Below, piece by piece: positions 49,510-55,578 of a DNA stretch of 64,000 nt. The translations under genes and the position numbers were made by a program. The notes under the pieces are model-generated. The model was given only the letters and a program-made list of their open reading frames with translations, did no database searches and was not told the DNA's origin. Within the stretch, counting starts at the first letter, position 1. Each line of letters starts with the position of its first letter. The DNA lies in the IMG/VR virus record IMGVR_UViG_2639763153_000002; one strand, written 5' to 3'. Source of the stretch: a virus (lineage: Duplodnaviria; Heunggongvirae; Uroviricota; Caudoviricetes).

Positions 49510-49850
49510 TGCTGCTCCTTCAGTTCGTCGGCCTTTTCTTTCAATGCTGGCTGGCGTACGTACTGCGATAGTACGGCCAGCACCACCAGCGCAGGGCTAA
49601 TCAACGCAACGATGTTTGGCGGCAGGATGTTTTTGATATCCGGCGGCAGCACCGCCCAGGCGTGCAGCGCAGCATCCGGGAACGACTGCGCCCATACACC
49701 AACCAGCGCGCCGATAGCTCCCAGCTTTACAGACCACGTTTTCAGCAGCAAGCTGGCATGCCCTACGAACTCCAGCCGGGTATATTTGCGCAGAAGTAAC
49801 AGAACGAGCACAGCCACCAGCACAAGCAAAGCGAAAATGATCATCTTCAC
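49506..49850 (-). CDS. LysA-like multi-TM lysis-associated membrane protein (holin/antiholin-like)
   Basis: Three hydrophobic segments. Between endolysin and spanins, as in P2. Confidence 0.45.
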   Translation of the reverse strand: MKMIIFALLVLVAVLVLLLLRKYTRLEFVGHASLLLKTWSVKLGAIGALVGVWAQSFPDAALHAWAVLPPDIKNILPPNIVALISPALVVLAVLSQYVRQPALKEKADELKEQQ

Positions 49851-50386
49851 AGGACACGCTCCTTAACCCAGCCGTAGAGAAAATCCTCGTTGGCTTCGCG
49901 GCCCTCCGCCAGTTCGAGGTATCTGGCACCCTGGCTGCAGTTCAGCGCACGCAACAGAACCTGTTCACCCTCTTTCCCGCGGGCGGAAAGGTATCCCTTA
50001 AGCGCGGTGATGGTTCGGGGACCAATGGCGCCATCCGGAATCAGATCGGGATACAGCTTTCCGCGCATATTCATTGCGGTCAGCCAGCGCTGGAAAAACT
50101 TACTGGCTACAGATGGCCCCATGTTCACGCCAGTGTCGCAAAGCTCATCTGCCAGTAACGTAGATAGAGCTGCCACCTGGTCAAACCGGGGGCCGGTCCA
50201 GTAATCGCTCAGCAGGATTTGCTTTGCTGTTTCCCTGGGCAGGTTCCGCATATCACCGGTGTAGCCATGTGCACGGGCGGTGGTCTGCGTGATGCCCCAG
50301 CGGGTCGGCCCGCCTTTATCCGACGGATGATCGACATAACCACCCTCCTTGCCGAGGATCCCCTCGATAATCTGATCTGCTGTCAT
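49847..50386 (-). CDS. Endolysin, GH108 N-terminal domain with peptidoglycan-binding C-terminus
   Basis: EGGYVDHPSDKGGPTRWGIT motif. Confidence 0.85.
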   Translation of the reverse strand: MTADQIIEGILGKEGGYVDHPSDKGGPTRWGITQTTARAHGYTGDMRNLPRETAKQILLSDYWTGPRFDQVAALSTLLADELCDTGVNMGPSVASKFFQRWLTAMNMRGKLYPDLIPDGAIGPRTITALKGYLSARGKEGEQVLLRALNCSQGARYLELAEGREANEDFLYGWVKERVL

Positions 50387-50694
50387 GGCGCCTTAACTCC
50401 GGTAATGCGTTCCCAGAAATAGGTCAAAGCAACAGAACCCATTGCCCCGCTAATTCCGGAAGTGGCCAGTATCATGTAAATGCTCAGTCCGCTTTCAATG
50501 CTCACCAGGCCAGCAATAACGCCGGTAAACCCTGAAACCACCATTTGGGCAAGAGCATTGATCAAGCTCCATGTTGCCTTGCTCTGCTTCACATCTATCA
50601 GGTAGCGGACAAGTCCACCCCAGCAAGCAATGATCAGCAGAACCAGCCAGGACATCCCGGCAATGCTCTCTTTGTCTTGCATACGTTTAGCCAT
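50383..50694 (-). CDS. Holin (3-TM class)
   Basis: 103 aa, three hydrophobic helices. First gene of the lysis operon. Confidence 0.75.
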   Translation of the reverse strand: MAKRMQDKESIAGMSWLVLLIIACWGGLVRYLIDVKQSKATWSLINALAQMVVSGFTGVIAGLVSIESGLSIYMILATSGISGAMGSVALTYFWERITGVKAP

Positions 50695-50970
50695 AGTTAC
50701 CGCCTCCGATGGAAGATCGGGAAGCTGTGTGTTTGAAAAGGGTCAGGCCCGTCAGGCTGGATTTAACAACGAAGCGTGTCGATGATGATTCCTGCGGGAC
50801 CTGATAATAAAAAAGCCATGCAAATGCATGGCCTTGTGATTTGAATCCGTTATTTACAAAATGTATTCGAGACAGTATCTTTCGACTTCCGGACAAAAAA
50901 ACATATACCGGGACAAAATCTAAATGTAACTGCCTTGCCTGCATGAAACCATGCGGGCTTTTTTTTGCCC

Positions 50971-50995
50971 AAAGAAAAAGCCCACCGAAGTGGGC
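50971..50995 (-). terminator. tR'-like rho-independent terminator on - strand (GCCCAC-cgaa-GTGGGC plus U-run)
   Basis: Read from sequence. Downstream of the PR'-like element and upstream of the holin. Confidence 0.6.
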
Positions 50996-51104
50996 CTTAC
51001 AACTATCATCATTTTTTATTAGGTGTGGTGCCGGGTGCCTCCCGGTAAGTCGCCGCCAGTCCACAGACGACTCGCAATGCGCAAAAAAACATATCAGACT
51101 GGCA

Positions 51105-51170
51105 ATGCCCCTCCGCATAGGGGGATTCACCACGCCAAAAATTTAACACCACAATAACATCACTTCAATA
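51105..51170 (-). promoter_or_regulatory. PR'-like late promoter region of prophage B with conserved GTGGTGAATCCCCCTATGCGGAGGGG element
   Basis: The motif is shared with 4405..4440. Candidate -35 TTGAAG and -10 TAAATT on - strand. Confidence 0.4.
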
Positions 51171-51309
51171 CTTTACGACGACGTGACAGGGGTGCATCTC
51201 GCGAATACCCCTGTCATATCGCCGAAAAGCAAAAACCCCGCCAGTCGACAGGGTTTCGATGATTAGGCTGTATGTCGAAGTGACCACTCCTAACAGATTA
51301 CGATAGTTT

Positions 51310-51338
51310 TTGCGTACGCGTTAGAGATTTCGTATGCT
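51310..51338 (+). promoter_or_regulatory. Sigma70-like promoter TTGCGT-N17-TATGCT for the moron operon
   Basis: Hexamers and spacing read from sequence. Implies start codon at 51375 rather than 51342. Confidence 0.45.
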
Positions 51339-51341
51339 GCA

Positions 51342-52460
51342 ATGAATAACATGCTAACAAGCAAGGATAAGGCGATGGCGAGTGTAGACTTTAGCTTTGA
51401 GGGGCTTCTTATAGAGAGAATTATCGCACACAGGGTTTTTCCTAAAAGTGCTGATAAATCATTAACTCCCCCAAAAACCAGCAAGTCTTTAATGGCATTC
51501 AAACAAGATGCATTAGATGCTTTTCAGGTGAGGATTACTGAAGCTTTGGCAAGTAAATCTCATGGAATTGAAATGTCTATTGGTGGTGTTGGTGATGATT
51601 GTTTTTTAAATTTGTCGGCTTCAACGTTTTCTAATGATACAGATCATTTCATCAAGGTTACCGAACGGCTTGCAAGTAAACTTAGCGAGGCACAATACAA
51701 TAGTTCGGCTCCTGGTGGGATATTAGCTGTATTGTCGGGCCGTGTTGGAAATGATTCACTTCCATTCCTTGCGGTAATAAAAGCTGAAACTCAGAATGGT
51801 TTTAGAACTGTGGAAAATGATGATCAGGTGACAATGGAGTTTATTGCAGAACTTCTTTTAACGCCTGCGCAACGTTTTTATAAGATTGGCTTTATAGTTC
51901 AAACTATTGCTTTACCTCCTGATAACTATGGTAATTATAACAGCTCATCTTATCGTGCTTTTTTGTTCGACCATTTAATGACATCGACTGAAACAAAAAA
52001 CGCCGCTGGGTATTTTTACTCCCGATTCTTGGATATGGATATAAGCAAGTCATCAAAAAAACTTACTCAGGATTTTTTTGAGAGTACCAGGGACTTCATC
52101 AATACTGCACAAATAGAGGAAAGCAGTAAGCTTGCGCTACATGAGGCTTTAAGAAGCGAAATGCGCTCTAGAAAGACCACATTAAGTACTGCGGATTTCG
52201 CTGAAACAAATCTCCCTGAAGAAATGCAGAGTGAGTATTTGGAATTTATGAAGAACAAAAGCTTCCCTGCAGCGGCAGTGACTAAAGACAACGGCTATAT
52301 TGAATCCAAGTTAAAAATAAGAAGCAAGCTCGTATTCTCTAATGATGTATGGGTTTCCGTGCCACCAGATCAATTAAAAAATCTTGTAGAAATTATCCCA
52401 TCGGATGATAATGAATCAACGATTTTGAAAATAAAAGGGCGGCTTAAAAGTCAACAATAA
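51342..52460 (+). CDS. NA37/YejK(NdpA)-like nucleoid-associated-protein-family protein (probable start 51375 with AAGGA RBS)
   Basis: IIAHRV near N-terminus. GGILAVLSG...LPFLAVIKAE resembles the GGF[VL]...LAV block of YejK. AT-rich. Confidence 0.55.
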   Translation: MNNMLTSKDKAMASVDFSFEGLLIERIIAHRVFPKSADKSLTPPKTSKSLMAFKQDALDAFQVRITEALASKSHGIEMSIGGVGDDCFLNLSASTFSNDTDHFIKVTERLASKLSEAQYNSSAPGGILAVLSGRVGNDSLPFLAVIKAETQNGFRTVENDDQVTMEFIAELLLTPAQRFYKIGFIVQTIALPPDNYGNYNSSSYRAFLFDHLMTSTETKNAAGYFYSRFLDMDISKSSKKLTQDFFESTRDFINTAQIEESSKLALHEALRSEMRSRKTTLSTADFAETNLPEEMQSEYLEFMKNKSFPAAAVTKDNGYIESKLKIRSKLVFSNDVWVSVPPDQLKNLVEIIPSDDNESTILKIKGRLKSQQ

Positions 52461-53452
52461 TGGATATCAATGAGTTCCGCGAGTTTTTACAGGCACACCA
52501 GGATGCTTACGCAGCTTGGGGGCAGTTTGTGTCTGAAGAAATTTGCAACGCACTTCGCAACTCCTTAGGGGATGACAAGGCCAAACTCTTTCTAAAGATC
52601 CGCTCAGAACCAAGGCTAAAAACTATCGCCTCAGCATTAGGAAAGGTCAGCCGAAAAGGCTATGATAATCCAATGGTGCAAATGACTGATTTGATTGGTG
52701 TGCGTTTTGTAGTCTTGCTCTCTGTTGAAATCAGAACTATCAGTGACATAATCGAGAACTGCGATAAATGGCATGCGACTGTTTCTAAAGACTATTTATC
52801 AGAAATTGATGTTAACCCCAAAATTTTTGACTATCAATCTCGGCATTACGAAGTAAGACCGATAACTCAATTCGACTACCGTGGTGAGAGTATAACGCCG
52901 GAAATGTGTTGTGAGGTTCAAGTTAGAACCTTGCTTCAACACGCCTATGCTGAATTAGTTCATGACAGCATCTACAAACCTTCTGGTGATGTACCTAAAT
53001 CGGCTGAAAGACAGATAGCTCGTAGCATGGCCTTAATGGAGACAACAGATGATCTTTTTTGCAAAACAATGGAAATTTTGGCCGATAATAGCAAGGAAAG
53101 AAACAAGCTTTTAGAATTCCTTTCAGGTTATTACTCAGAAAAAATTGGCAAGCAATACATTGATGAAGATTTACATGTTAACTTCTCCGTCATTGATACC
53201 TTTAAAGAGCACATTGACGACAATCTGCCAAATAAAATCCACGTGCTACTCAGTGAGAAAAAATACATTCCGATACGGATAATAAATAGAGTTGAGTACA
53301 ATCCTCTATTCACTCAACCATGCATACTGTTTGTATACTGGCTAGCAAGCCAGTTAGACTCTGGTGAATTGCTTTCACACTGGCCCTTGCCGGGCAATAT
53401 TAGTGGGCTGGAGTTAGTATTAAGCGACCTAGGAAAAAGCATTTCTCGTTAG
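52460..53452 (+). CDS. RelA/SpoT-domain nucleotidyltransferase (small alarmone synthetase/toxSAS-like) with about 150-aa C-terminal extension
   Basis: RLKTIASALGKVSRK, TDLIGVRFVV, DY, and EVQVRTLLQHAYAELVHDSIYK synthetase motifs. TAATG coupling to the upstream gene. Confidence 0.8.
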   Translation: MDINEFREFLQAHQDAYAAWGQFVSEEICNALRNSLGDDKAKLFLKIRSEPRLKTIASALGKVSRKGYDNPMVQMTDLIGVRFVVLLSVEIRTISDIIENCDKWHATVSKDYLSEIDVNPKIFDYQSRHYEVRPITQFDYRGESITPEMCCEVQVRTLLQHAYAELVHDSIYKPSGDVPKSAERQIARSMALMETTDDLFCKTMEILADNSKERNKLLEFLSGYYSEKIGKQYIDEDLHVNFSVIDTFKEHIDDNLPNKIHVLLSEKKYIPIRIINRVEYNPLFTQPCILFVYWLASQLDSGELLSHWPLPGNISGLELVLSDLGKSISR

Positions 53453-53491
53453 AAAGCCAATCTTTCAACTGGCTTTCATGGAGTTTAGTAT

Positions 53492-53839
53492 TTAAAAATC
53501 TAACATCGAAATGCAACCATCTACAAACCCCATCGCAGTCTGCAATTCCTTCCTGATGGTCCCATCAGAACACTTCCGTTTCTTCGCGATGCTTCTTAAT
53601 GAGATACCAATAACAAAATGAGCAATAATTAACTCATACTCCTCCGGTTTATACTTCCGTAATCGCGCCACACACCCGTCAATGATGATACCTTCATCAT
53701 CATTGCACTGAAGCCGTGACTTCTTGCCGTGTGGGAGCAGTCCTTTAAACCCAGCAGCGATTGGTTGCCAGTCAACACCGTTACCGTCAGCAGCGGCCCA
53801 TGCGCCCCAGCGGTCTAATACTTCGTACATATCACGCAT
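53492..53839 (-). CDS. Q: Late-gene antiterminator Q (phage 82 type)
   Basis: MRDMYEVLDRWGAWAA...AAGFKGL...C.DDE...GC.ARL closely follows the Q82 pattern. Confidence 0.8.
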   Translation of the reverse strand: MRDMYEVLDRWGAWAAADGNGVDWQPIAAGFKGLLPHGKKSRLQCNDDEGIIIDGCVARLRKYKPEEYELIIAHFVIGISLRSIAKKRKCSDGTIRKELQTAMGFVDGCISMLDF

Positions 53840-54350
53840 TGTTGTTATCTCCCGCGCTGTCGTTATCAGAAATTAAAATTTGTCCGGATTCACCCCAGAG
53901 CTTTGTTACCCGCAAATCCCAGATATGTGCATCTTCGGCATACAGGGCATCCATCAGCGCTTTAATCATGTTGTCGACGTCCGGCTTTTGTTGGTGGGCC
54001 TGACCGTTCATTACTGCGCGTTTCTTCTGGCTCCAACTCGCCGGCATCGGCAGGATGAAGGTGATGTGACTTCCCGCCTCCGGCATGGTGACCTTCTTAA
54101 GGCGGACCTCATCGCAGAATGCCCGGTAGCGCATAACCACTTCTCGCTGCTTCCATTTGTCCGCCCGCGTCATCCTCGGCTTGCCCATTGGTGTAATGTT
54201 AAAAATCTTCATGGCCAGCCCGGCTCCCTTTCGTGTAACGGCGTTGATTTGCCTTTGGTTGCGGCGTCGAGCGCTGGCGAGCCTCATCCTGATCAATTGG
54301 CAGGAAATGACCGTTGTAGAACCGACGGTAGATAGTCCCCAGTTCCCCAT
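53832..54350 (-). CDS. rusA: RusA-like Holliday junction resolvase (probable start MKIFNITP, about 54212)
   Basis: KPDVDNMIKALMDAL equals the RusA D-x-D-N motif. Confidence 0.7.
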   Translation of the reverse strand: MGNWGLSTVGSTTVISCQLIRMRLASARRRNQRQINAVTRKGAGLAMKIFNITPMGKPRMTRADKWKQREVVMRYRAFCDEVRLKKVTMPEAGSHITFILPMPASWSQKKRAVMNGQAHQQKPDVDNMIKALMDALYAEDAHIWDLRVTKLWGESGQILISDNDSAGDNNNA

Positions 54351-55578
54351 TCCGCTGTTTTGTCACGTTAATTTCGGCAATTCCCTTTGCTGGCGATTCA
54401 GGGTTATAAACCTCGTCGCGGTACAACATCAGGATCAAGTCAGCATCAGCCTCAATTTCTCCCGAGTTTTTCATATCGGAGTTCATTGGCCGCTTATTGG
54501 GTCTGGATTCGACACCGCGCGACAGCTGGCTCAGCGCAAGGACGGGGGTTTTATTGGATTTAGCCAGGTTTTTAAGCCCCTTGGATACTTCGCCAACGGC
54601 CAGGTCGTAACGCGCAGCGCTCTGAATTTTGATAAGCGCCAGATAGTCGATGACCACCAGCGCGATTTCAGGATGCGCTATCTGGTAGCGCGTGGCGGTT
54701 TGCTGTATCTGGTCGATGGTCAGTCCCGTGGCGTCGGTGATCCAGATATTGCGGGTGGCCATACGTTCCATGCCGTTAAAGAACCGCGCCCAGTCCTCAT
54801 CCTCGAATTTATCCACGGCTTTCAGGCGGGACATCGACATGCCGCCAGCGGCGGATACCATGCGTTTGGCGATCTGGATATCGGACATCTCCATGCTGAA
54901 AAACAGCACGCCATGCCCCTGAGCGGATACTTTGTCGATAATGTCCAAGGCCAGCTCGGTTTTTCCCATCGATGGACGAGCGGCGATAAACACCAGATCC
55001 GTAGGTTCAATACCGCCCGTCTTCGCATCAAGTTCCTCAATGCCGGTGAGCAGGCTTCGGGTCTCTTCTTTCCCCTGGCTACGGGATTCCGCTTCATCGG
55101 CCACCGCTGTGAGCAGTTCTGAGATGTGAACAGGCTGGACGGTATCAGCAGAAATATCGATGGCCGATACAGCCAGTTTTGCGGCTTCAAGAGCGGCCAG
55201 AGCAGCATCGCCGTTGCTGGCGCTCCTGATTTGTTCCAGTGCTTTTTCCAGTGCGGATTCAGCATCACGCACGCCGGCATTGCGACGCAGAACGTCAACA
55301 TAAGAGACCAGAGCCGATTTCGCCCAGCTGACGCGGGTGGCTTCCAGAATCGTGGTCTGAAGCGCCGGCAGCGACTCGCAAAGCAGTAGCGGGTCAATCA
55401 CACCACCGCCGCGGGCCTGTCGGCAGATGCCAGTGTAAATTTCCCGATACTGACGAACAGAGAAAGTGCTTGCAGGCAGCCGGGAAAGAACATCCAGTAC
55501 CTCAGGGTCGGCACCACGCAGGAACAATGCGCCGATAACTGCCTCTTCCAAATCCTCATTTTTCCACACGGGTGTCAT
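54199..55578 (-). CDS. Replicative DNA helicase DnaB-like
   Basis: 459 aa. Walker A GKTELALD. DnaB N-terminal domain. Confidence 0.9.
   Translation of the reverse strand: MTPVWKNEDLEEAVIGALFLRGADPEVLDVLSRLPASTFSVRQYREIYTGICRQARGGGVIDPLLLCESLPALQTTILEATRVSWAKSALVSYVDVLRRNAGVRDAESALEKALEQIRSASNGDAALAALEAAKLAVSAIDISADTVQPVHISELLTAVADEAESRSQGKEETRSLLTGIEELDAKTGGIEPTDLVFIAARPSMGKTELALDIIDKVSAQGHGVLFFSMEMSDIQIAKRMVSAAGGMSMSRLKAVDKFEDEDWARFFNGMERMATRNIWITDATGLTIDQIQQTATRYQIAHPEIALVVIDYLALIKIQSAARYDLAVGEVSKGLKNLAKSNKTPVLALSQLSRGVESRPNKRPMNSDMKNSGEIEADADLILMLYRDEVYNPESPAKGIAEINVTKQRNGELGTIYRRFYNGHFLPIDQDEARQRSTPQPKANQRRYTKGSRAGHEDF

Follow-up and report, generated by a model that had tools for sequence, protein, structure and literature searches.

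The closest described relative of the two genes discussed here is the Type I PANGU defence system. The genes form a module in a 64,000-nucleotide stretch of Caudoviricetes DNA (IMG/VR virus record IMGVR_UViG_2639763153_000002), the whole of which is called the window below. They encode a nucleoid-associated protein (NAP) of the NA37/YejK type followed by a toxic small alarmone synthetase (toxSAS) of the RelA/SpoT type. An earlier note on this DNA had placed the pairing outside the described systems. However, the architecture matches that of Type I PANGU, an already named system, and we consider it likely that the module is a Type I PANGU-class abortive-infection cargo in the defence slot of a lambdoid Klebsiella-type prophage.

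The combination of NAP and toxSAS was defined as Type I PANGU in April 2026 (bioRxiv 10.64898/2026.04.06.716658, the source for everything in this paragraph). Its sensor is the YejK-like, nucleoid-associated Pag1A, and its effector is Pag1B, a GRel toxSAS in which a helical linker joins the N-terminal synthetase domain to a C-terminal domain. The latter binds Pag1A and was described as having an acidic, DNA-mimicking surface. In the systems tested, defence required both genes and neither gene alone nor the pair was toxic. Pag1B alone is an inactive tetramer, and binding of a Pag1A dimer to the C-terminal domain gives an active 2:1 complex which converts ATP and GTP, GDP or GMP to AMP and (pp)pGpp with no labelling of tRNA. 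Pag1A departs from the nucleoid upon degradation of the host chromosome, and synthesis of pppGpp by the complex begins when host DNA is broken down by phage nucleases. Phage T4 escapes via mutations in denA (endonuclease II), and a DNA-binding-deficient mutant of Pag1A renders the pair toxic. With homologous pairs, T4 or Bas34 formed 3-4 logs fewer plaques. The characterised systems are from F. futtsuensis, P. aeruginosa (a pair of 40.6 and 37.5 kDa) and E. coli, and the Pag1A-Pag1B complex has been deposited as PDB 9UFP. An essential role was reported for the G-loop tyrosine Y129, and the published functional residues, at the interface and in contact with DNA, are R258, R306 and H314 of Pag1B and K200, R203 and K204 of Pag1A. 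The operational criteria were an NA37 hidden Markov model match with E <1e-10, a length of >=300 aa and a neighbouring gene within <40 bp. Prophages are not mentioned in the preprint.

Other described systems share parts of this arrangement. DS-1, found with DefensePredictor, is a validated E. coli defence system made of a YejK-domain protein and an uncharacterised partner. Both DS-1 and Type II PANGU (Pag2A and the transmembrane Pag2B) resemble the module in that a YejK-like NAP partners a defence effector in a two-gene operon. They differ in that the effector is a membrane or unknown protein whereas here it is a RelA/SpoT enzyme, and in DS-1 the NAP carries an additional zinc ribbon at its N-terminus. 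CapRel (e.g. of Salmonella phage SJ46; PDB 7ZTB) is also a prophage-encoded toxSAS with the synthetase fold, a C-terminal regulatory domain and a role in abortive infection. However, CapRel is a single polypeptide which is auto-inhibited by its C-terminal domain, triggered by phage capsid protein and pyrophosphorylates tRNA, whereas the toxSAS of the window has a separate, obligatory NAP partner. RelQ (SAS1) and RelP (SAS2) are (p)ppGpp synthetases which are tetramers in their published structures. Residues 1-200 of the window toxSAS match these structures best, but RelQ and RelP are single-domain proteins of ~200-230 aa without a NAP partner, and the window protein has an extra C-terminal region of 150 aa. 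Finally, E. coli YejK (NdpA; PDB 9BE2) has its overall fold and the Pfam NA37 family in common with the window NAP, but the latter is found on mobile cargo and always paired with a toxSAS.

The two proteins and their pairing

Two plus-strand open reading frames (ORFs) are found in the window, 51342..52460 (372 aa) and 52460..53452 (330 aa). The earlier note had given a length of 361 to 372 aa for the first protein. Since the homologues are 357-366 aa long and a 99%-identical protein of 361 aa is annotated in Klebsiella michiganensis (NCBI), the true start of the NAP is ATG 51375, and it is with this methionine that the N-termini of the homologues align. The ATG at 51342 was rejected on these grounds, and it would also lie upstream of the transcript if transcription starts near 51345, as discussed below. 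The ribosome-binding sequence AAGGA, which the note had given at 51375, is present; it lies at the position given in Table 1, 51375 being that of the ATG itself.

The NA37/YejK-like nature of the first protein, of 40.3 kDa, was borne out. The Pfam NA37 match had E=5.4e-13 and 49.4 bits against a cut-off of 24.6, the query being the 372-aa reading, of which the 361-aa protein is part. An AlphaFold2 (AF2) model was obtained with a mean predicted local distance difference test score (pLDDT) of 80, and a Foldseek search of the PDB gave E. coli YejK 9BE2 as the sole significant match (E=8e-8), with only 15% identity in an alignment covering the full length. YejK was not detected by the sequence profile of the NAP family. 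Basic residues are conserved at R53, K136, R167, K170, K229, K252, R264, K304, R316 and K318. The protein also matches phrog_1974 (E=7e-92), a PHROGs family with unknown function. It is the presumed sensor and activator of the module.

The second protein, of 38.0 kDa, matches Pfam RelA_SpoT with E=1.3e-16 and 61.3 bits against a cut-off of 27. The complete set of small alarmone synthetase motifs reported in the earlier note was found again: R52-x-K54-xxx-S58-xxx-K62, TDLIGVRFV at 76-84 and EVQVRTLLQHAYAELVHDSIYK at 152-173. An alignment of 74 homologues showed >=95% conservation of R52, K54, S58, K62, D77, Y125, S127, H129, E152, Q154, R156, H161, E165, H168, Y172 and K173. Y125 lies within the G-loop motif FDYQSxH and corresponds to Y129 of the characterised PANGU system, so that the G-loop tyrosine is present together with D77 and E152-x-Q-x-R156. 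As far as sequence can tell, the active site is intact and strongly conserved. The AF2 model (pLDDT 86.9) comprises an alpha/beta synthetase domain (1-170), a long helix (180-228) and a helical bundle (238-323), which is the effector layout described for Pag1B. The C-terminal extension of about 150 aa pointed out in the note is thus real and folded, with the helix and the bundle at pLDDT 93-97. The best PDB matches were SAS1/RelQ 5DED and RelP 6EX0, with E ~1e-8 and template modelling (TM) scores of 0.70-0.77 on the target. CapRel 7ZTB was 27th among the PDB matches and its full-length superposition was poor (TM ~0.41, root mean square deviation 14-17 A).

The protein does not fit the housekeeping synthetases. 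Its score against NCBIfam GTPPhKinYjbM was 35.5 bits, far under the equivalog cut-off of 320, and it is not a single-domain protein. It matches phrog_32462 (E=3e-199), another PHROGs family with unknown function, and a BFVD search gave matches to the synthetase core only. The C-terminal domain had no sequence match in the PDB. When it was used alone against 1.84 billion representatives, in a single-sequence search of limited sensitivity, 42 matches were obtained. All of these were toxSAS proteins of 320-335 aa carrying the domain at the C-terminus, or fragments, and reuse of the domain on other effectors is therefore unsupported.

The module agrees with the published description of Type I PANGU in its gene order and overlapping genes, in the size of its YejK-like NA37 protein (~40 kDa) and toxSAS (~38 kDa), in its intact synthetase motifs and in a wide, patchy spread across phyla. 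With respect to the operational criteria, the NA37 match given above belongs to a protein of 361 aa and the NAP gene lies upstream of the toxSAS gene with an overlap of 1 nt. This is the TAATG stop/start overlap recognised in the earlier note. The window copy differs from those described in its location between Q and the late leader of a lambdoid prophage, in having a C-terminal domain which is only mildly acidic and in having no SLATT gene.

The co-occurrence of the two families, proposed in the note as a check, was examined by scanning genomes with the toxSAS alignment alone as query, which gave 80 loci; an earlier genome scan with a single protein as query had given no loci. The 80 loci span Proteobacteria, Verrucomicrobiota, Planctomycetota, Bacillota, Actinomycetota and Nitrospinota. 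A NAP homologue is encoded directly upstream on the same strand in 78 of them, and the remaining two are either truncated by a contig end or degraded. In 69 of the 78 paired loci the genes overlap at their stop and start codons, by 4, 1 or 8 nt. The pairwise divergences of the two proteins are correlated over 74 pairs (r=0.93), shared ancestry contributing to this value. The pair is a near-obligate, co-diverging module.

Some irregular copies were also noted. In a Thermodesulfobacteriota locus (L034, 5242-8001) the NAP gene is interrupted by an ORF of 443 aa on the reverse strand, which may be an insertion element, and the toxSAS gene is intact. The converse is seen in Neisseria gonorrhoeae (DSM 9188, L069; cluster of P0086), where the NAP is intact and the toxSAS is reduced to a C-terminal fragment of 212 aa; this copy, seen on >1000 gonococcal contigs, represents a decayed module which has become fixed in the species. 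The protein cluster (at 90% identity) to which the window toxSAS belongs also lists NAP proteins, probably a clustering artefact arising, for example, from fused read-through ORFs. P. aeruginosa members were sought among the cluster names and none was seen, the names being Stutzerimonas, P. lurida and Neisseria.

The proposed mechanism and its alternatives

If the module operates as a Type I PANGU system, the 361-aa YejK-like protein would be a dimeric, sequence-nonspecific DNA clamp bound to the nucleoid in the healthy lysogen, and the 330-aa toxSAS would be present in the cytoplasm as an inactive oligomer. A superinfecting lytic phage which degrades the host chromosome would release the NAP, which would then bind the toxSAS at its helical C-terminal domain to give an active complex, and this complex would move pyrophosphate from ATP to GTP, GDP or GMP. 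Drainage of ATP and GTP and accumulation of (p)ppGpp would stop transcription and translation and the infection would be aborted. Sister lysogens would be protected by the aborted infection and therefore the prophage would be protected too. The scheme follows the preprint in casting the NAP as activator and in its presumed trigger, product and stoichiometry.

Several points weigh against this assignment. Membership of PANGU was judged by architecture and by the operational criteria, and the module was set against the characterised members by description. The mechanism is suggested by architectural homology and by a single preprint which is not peer reviewed. The name gRel appears in Atkinson 2011 and in the preprint, and 'GRel' is a candidate label for the toxSAS of the window which follows from its architecture and partner, not from a subfamily model. 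The product, whether pppGpp, pppApp or modified tRNA, is not legible in the amino acid sequence. The C-terminal domain has a net charge of -4, in a family whose values lie between -9 and +3 (median -3), and the only conserved acidic positions in it are D246 and D323, so the acidic DNA-mimic character described for Pag1B is not evident from composition. Given a domain so weakly charged and variable, recognition of the NAP in this clade may bypass DNA mimicry. Lastly, the profile check for known systems put forward in the note was run, and PADLOC 2023 returned nothing beyond a partial match to the candidate PDC-S33 (E=7e-13, profile positions 46-177 of 349); the overlap is confined to the synthetase core and does not amount to a full-length match.

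The note had offered a toxin-antitoxin (TA) module as an alternative to abortive infection. In the classical type II form of this idea a constitutively active toxSAS would be restrained by a NAP-like antitoxin, and shut-off of host expression by a phage would free the toxin. All toxSAS enzymes studied earlier are indeed TA toxins (bioRxiv 10.64898/2026.04.06.716658), and tight translational coupling with co-divergence would fit a toxin and its cognate antitoxin. However, the homologous Type I PANGU genes are non-toxic singly or together, deletion of the NAP abolishes PANGU defence and does not kill the cell, the enzyme needs the NAP for its activity in vitro, and the pair becomes toxic when the NAP is mutated such that it cannot bind DNA. 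The partner in the window is a 361-aa protein of the YejK fold for which Pfam, NCBIfam and PADLOC gave no match to a known antitoxin family; the known-family antitoxin, small or fused, of the classical toxSAS-TA systems (FaRel, PhRel and CapRel types) was not found for this pair. A restrained toxin thus appears very unlikely indeed. The partner is most likely an activating sensor, not an antitoxin, and of the two roles suggested in the note it is abortive infection which gives the best reading.

A defence system activated by its NAP could also use a different chemistry, making (pp)pApp or pyrophosphorylating the 3' end of tRNA instead of making (p)ppGpp. Such reactions are known for other toxSAS subfamilies and the conserved motifs do not reveal the choice of substrate. 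Against this, the assayed Pag1B enzymes, which have the same architecture, used only ATP with GTP, GDP or GMP and gave no tRNA label, and the synthetase fold of the window protein is nearer to SAS1/RelP than to CapRel, so we hold another product to be very unlikely. The remaining alternative places the pair outside defence altogether, as a lysogenic-conversion or phage-regulatory unit which would tune the stringent response or the nucleoid of the host to the advantage of the prophage, e.g. through effects on induction or host fitness. Alarmones influence the lysis-lysogeny decisions of lambdoid phages, and the module adjoins the regulatory gene Q. However, the pair also occurs in non-lambdoid contexts in many phyla, the same slot in a sibling phage carries the bona fide defence system Kiwa, and the loss of T4 or Bas34 plaques caused by homologous pairs is a matter of 3-4 logs. 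A purely regulatory role is, on this evidence, hardly to be expected, and the Type I PANGU-class reading is retained in what follows.

The slot between Q and the lysis genes

The features of the locus are collected in Table 1. As the earlier note had stated, the module is an AT-rich, opposite-strand insert which separates Q from the lysis genes of a lambdoid prophage. The prophage is of the Klebsiella type. The GC content is 0.36-0.43 over 51300-53400 and 0.50-0.59 in the flanks, the module genes are on the plus strand and all neighbouring genes are on the minus strand, and the flanking genes were identified with Pfam. Q, labelled Q82-type in the note and matched here to Pfam PF06530, is tail-to-tail with the toxSAS gene across a gap of 39 bp. 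Beyond the lysis genes the minus strand encodes DUF7940, DUF2560, HNH and TerL.

Table 1. Coordinates, strand and supporting evidence of the features in and around the NAP-toxSAS module.
Feature	Position	Strand	Evidence
GH108 endolysin gene	49847-50386	-	Pfam search
Holin, first lysis gene	50383-50694	-	Pfam Phage_holin_3_3, E=5.7e-21
STnc100-family prophage small RNA	50967-51162	-	Rfam RF02076, 100.1 bits vs gathering 47, E=1.6e-22
Conserved phage-backbone element bordering the slot	51221..51323	-	87-97% identity, E. coli/Klebsiella prophages with other cargo
Candidate hybrid promoter TTGCGT-N17-TATGCT	51310..51338	+	Sequence; 7/12 consensus positions
Cargo segment, ~2.17 kb, AT-rich, two-gene module only	51324..53490	+	Alignment edges and GC
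Shine-Dalgarno AAGGA, 7 nt 5' of ATG 51375	51363..51367	+	Sequence
pag1A-like gene, 361-aa NA37/YejK-like nucleoid-associated protein	51375..52460	+	Pfam, fold, homologues
TAATG stop/start overlap, 1 nt (translational coupling)	52458..52462	+	Sequence
pag1B-like gene, 330-aa toxSAS	52460..53452	+	Pfam, AF2, homologues
Q antiterminator gene	53492-53839	-	Pfam Phage_antitermQ PF06530, E=1.3e-47
RusA gene	53832-54350	-	Pfam search
DnaB-type helicase gene	54199-55578	-	

The edges of the cargo were located by alignment with prophages carrying other cargo. Similarity stops at 51323 on the left and restarts at the stop codon of Q, ~53490, on the right, so the cargo extends over ~51324-53490 and consists of the two genes only. 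The short element of ~100 bp on the left hardly varies between E. coli and Klebsiella prophages which differ in cargo, and it was found beside the slot in Klebsiella phage ST846-OXA48phi9.1 and in the E. coli F5 prophage. It carries a minus-strand terminator-like hairpin (51257-51232, 11 pairs) with a T-tract and, on the plus strand, the hexamer TTGCGT. Its candidate roles are the end of the early operon, an anchor for recombination or a shared -35. No convincing sigma-70 late promoter was found when one was sought on the minus strand of this element. The STnc100 RNA between the slot and the holin gene matches its model over the full length (positions 1-206 of 206) and has a terminator-like hairpin, 50998-50977, at its end. 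It is probably a late-leader RNA ending at that hairpin.

The note had regarded the slot as a hotspot for defence and other cargo, and the sibling prophages agree with this. In ST846-OXA48phi9.1 (MK416021; L081, 3198-4590) the slot holds QBP07766 and QBP07765, annotated as hypothetical, which together are a complete Kiwa system (KwaA E=1.6e-82, KwaB E=5e-144). The slot of the E. coli F5 prophage (NZ_CP195955; L082, 3215-5608) holds three plus-strand genes for proteins of 237, 189 and 363 aa, the last of which has a metallo-beta-lactamase fold with LmuA/RTasMBL-like PADLOC matches of ~1e-12; as these matches are weak, the cassette is taken as an unassigned candidate defence system. An identical NAP and toxSAS module fills the same slot in several mosaic prophages which differ in their lysis and head modules. 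The site between Q and the lysis genes is a real, exchangeable slot carrying defence cargo. One sibling prophage with the identical module also encodes, downstream of its lysis genes (L083, 5414-5707), a protein of the Acb2/Tad1-hairpin family, an anti-CBASS/anti-Thoeris sponge family of which the window has no gene.

The note had also given the insert its own promoter. Both hexamers are present, and the candidate -10 TATGCT (51333-38) is in the cargo. The candidate -35 TTGCGT (51310-15) is a property of the phage backbone since the shared sequence ends at 51323, directly after TTGCGTACGCGTTA. The promoter scanner was silent on this site as only 7 of the 12 consensus positions agree, which is below its threshold, and promoter-like sites are as frequent in the region as in shuffled sequence (7 observed, 7.2 expected). 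Given the weak consensus match and this frequency, self-promotion is plausible and unproven. The predicted transcription start would be near 51345. In the alignment of three cargos, the conserved TTGCGT is followed 17-18 nt downstream by a TAnnnT hexamer supplied by the cargo itself: TATGCT here, TATAGT in ST846-OXA48phi9.1 and TAGATT in E. coli F5. This recurrence is suggestive of promoter sharing without proving it. A more elaborate view, in which the slot would be an exchangeable promoter-sharing defence cassette with a -35 from the backbone and a -10 from each cargo, silenced by antisense transcription on induction, is put forward tentatively and we think it rather unlikely to hold in full. 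In this view, because the cassette is tail-to-tail with Q, transcripts reading through from the early operon upon induction would cross it in the antisense direction and would switch the abortive system off while the prophage itself grows lytically.

The module is frequent in Klebsiella. The exact proteins correspond to 'MULTISPECIES … [Klebsiella]' entries; 537 contigs carry the toxSAS and 707 the NAP. A homologous pair was present in 2 of 5,426 complete E. coli genomes, with identities of 59% and 54%. The E. coli pair (L725, NZ_CP036202, L089 8520-10973; strain CEC15) is cargo of a P2-like prophage, lying between late control gene D and ogr, and is preceded by a small helix-turn-helix gene which has no counterpart in the window. 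A tblastn search of 50,697 phage genomes found the pair in none of them, and when the DNA of the module was searched against phages and complete E. coli genomes, the short backbone element was the only part to match.

Implications for Klebsiella prophages

The assignment adds no new category of system. As the PANGU preprint makes no mention of prophages, carriage of the module by a prophage is a small addition to published knowledge: a recently described defence with a NAP as its sensor would be carried as prophage cargo and would be common in Klebsiella under generic annotations. The families phrog_1974 and phrog_32462 and the labels 'GTP pyrophosphokinase' and 'nucleoid-associated protein' are open to re-annotation in this light. 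The Klebsiella copies would provide a natural and clinically relevant host for the model in which the integrity of the genome is sensed.

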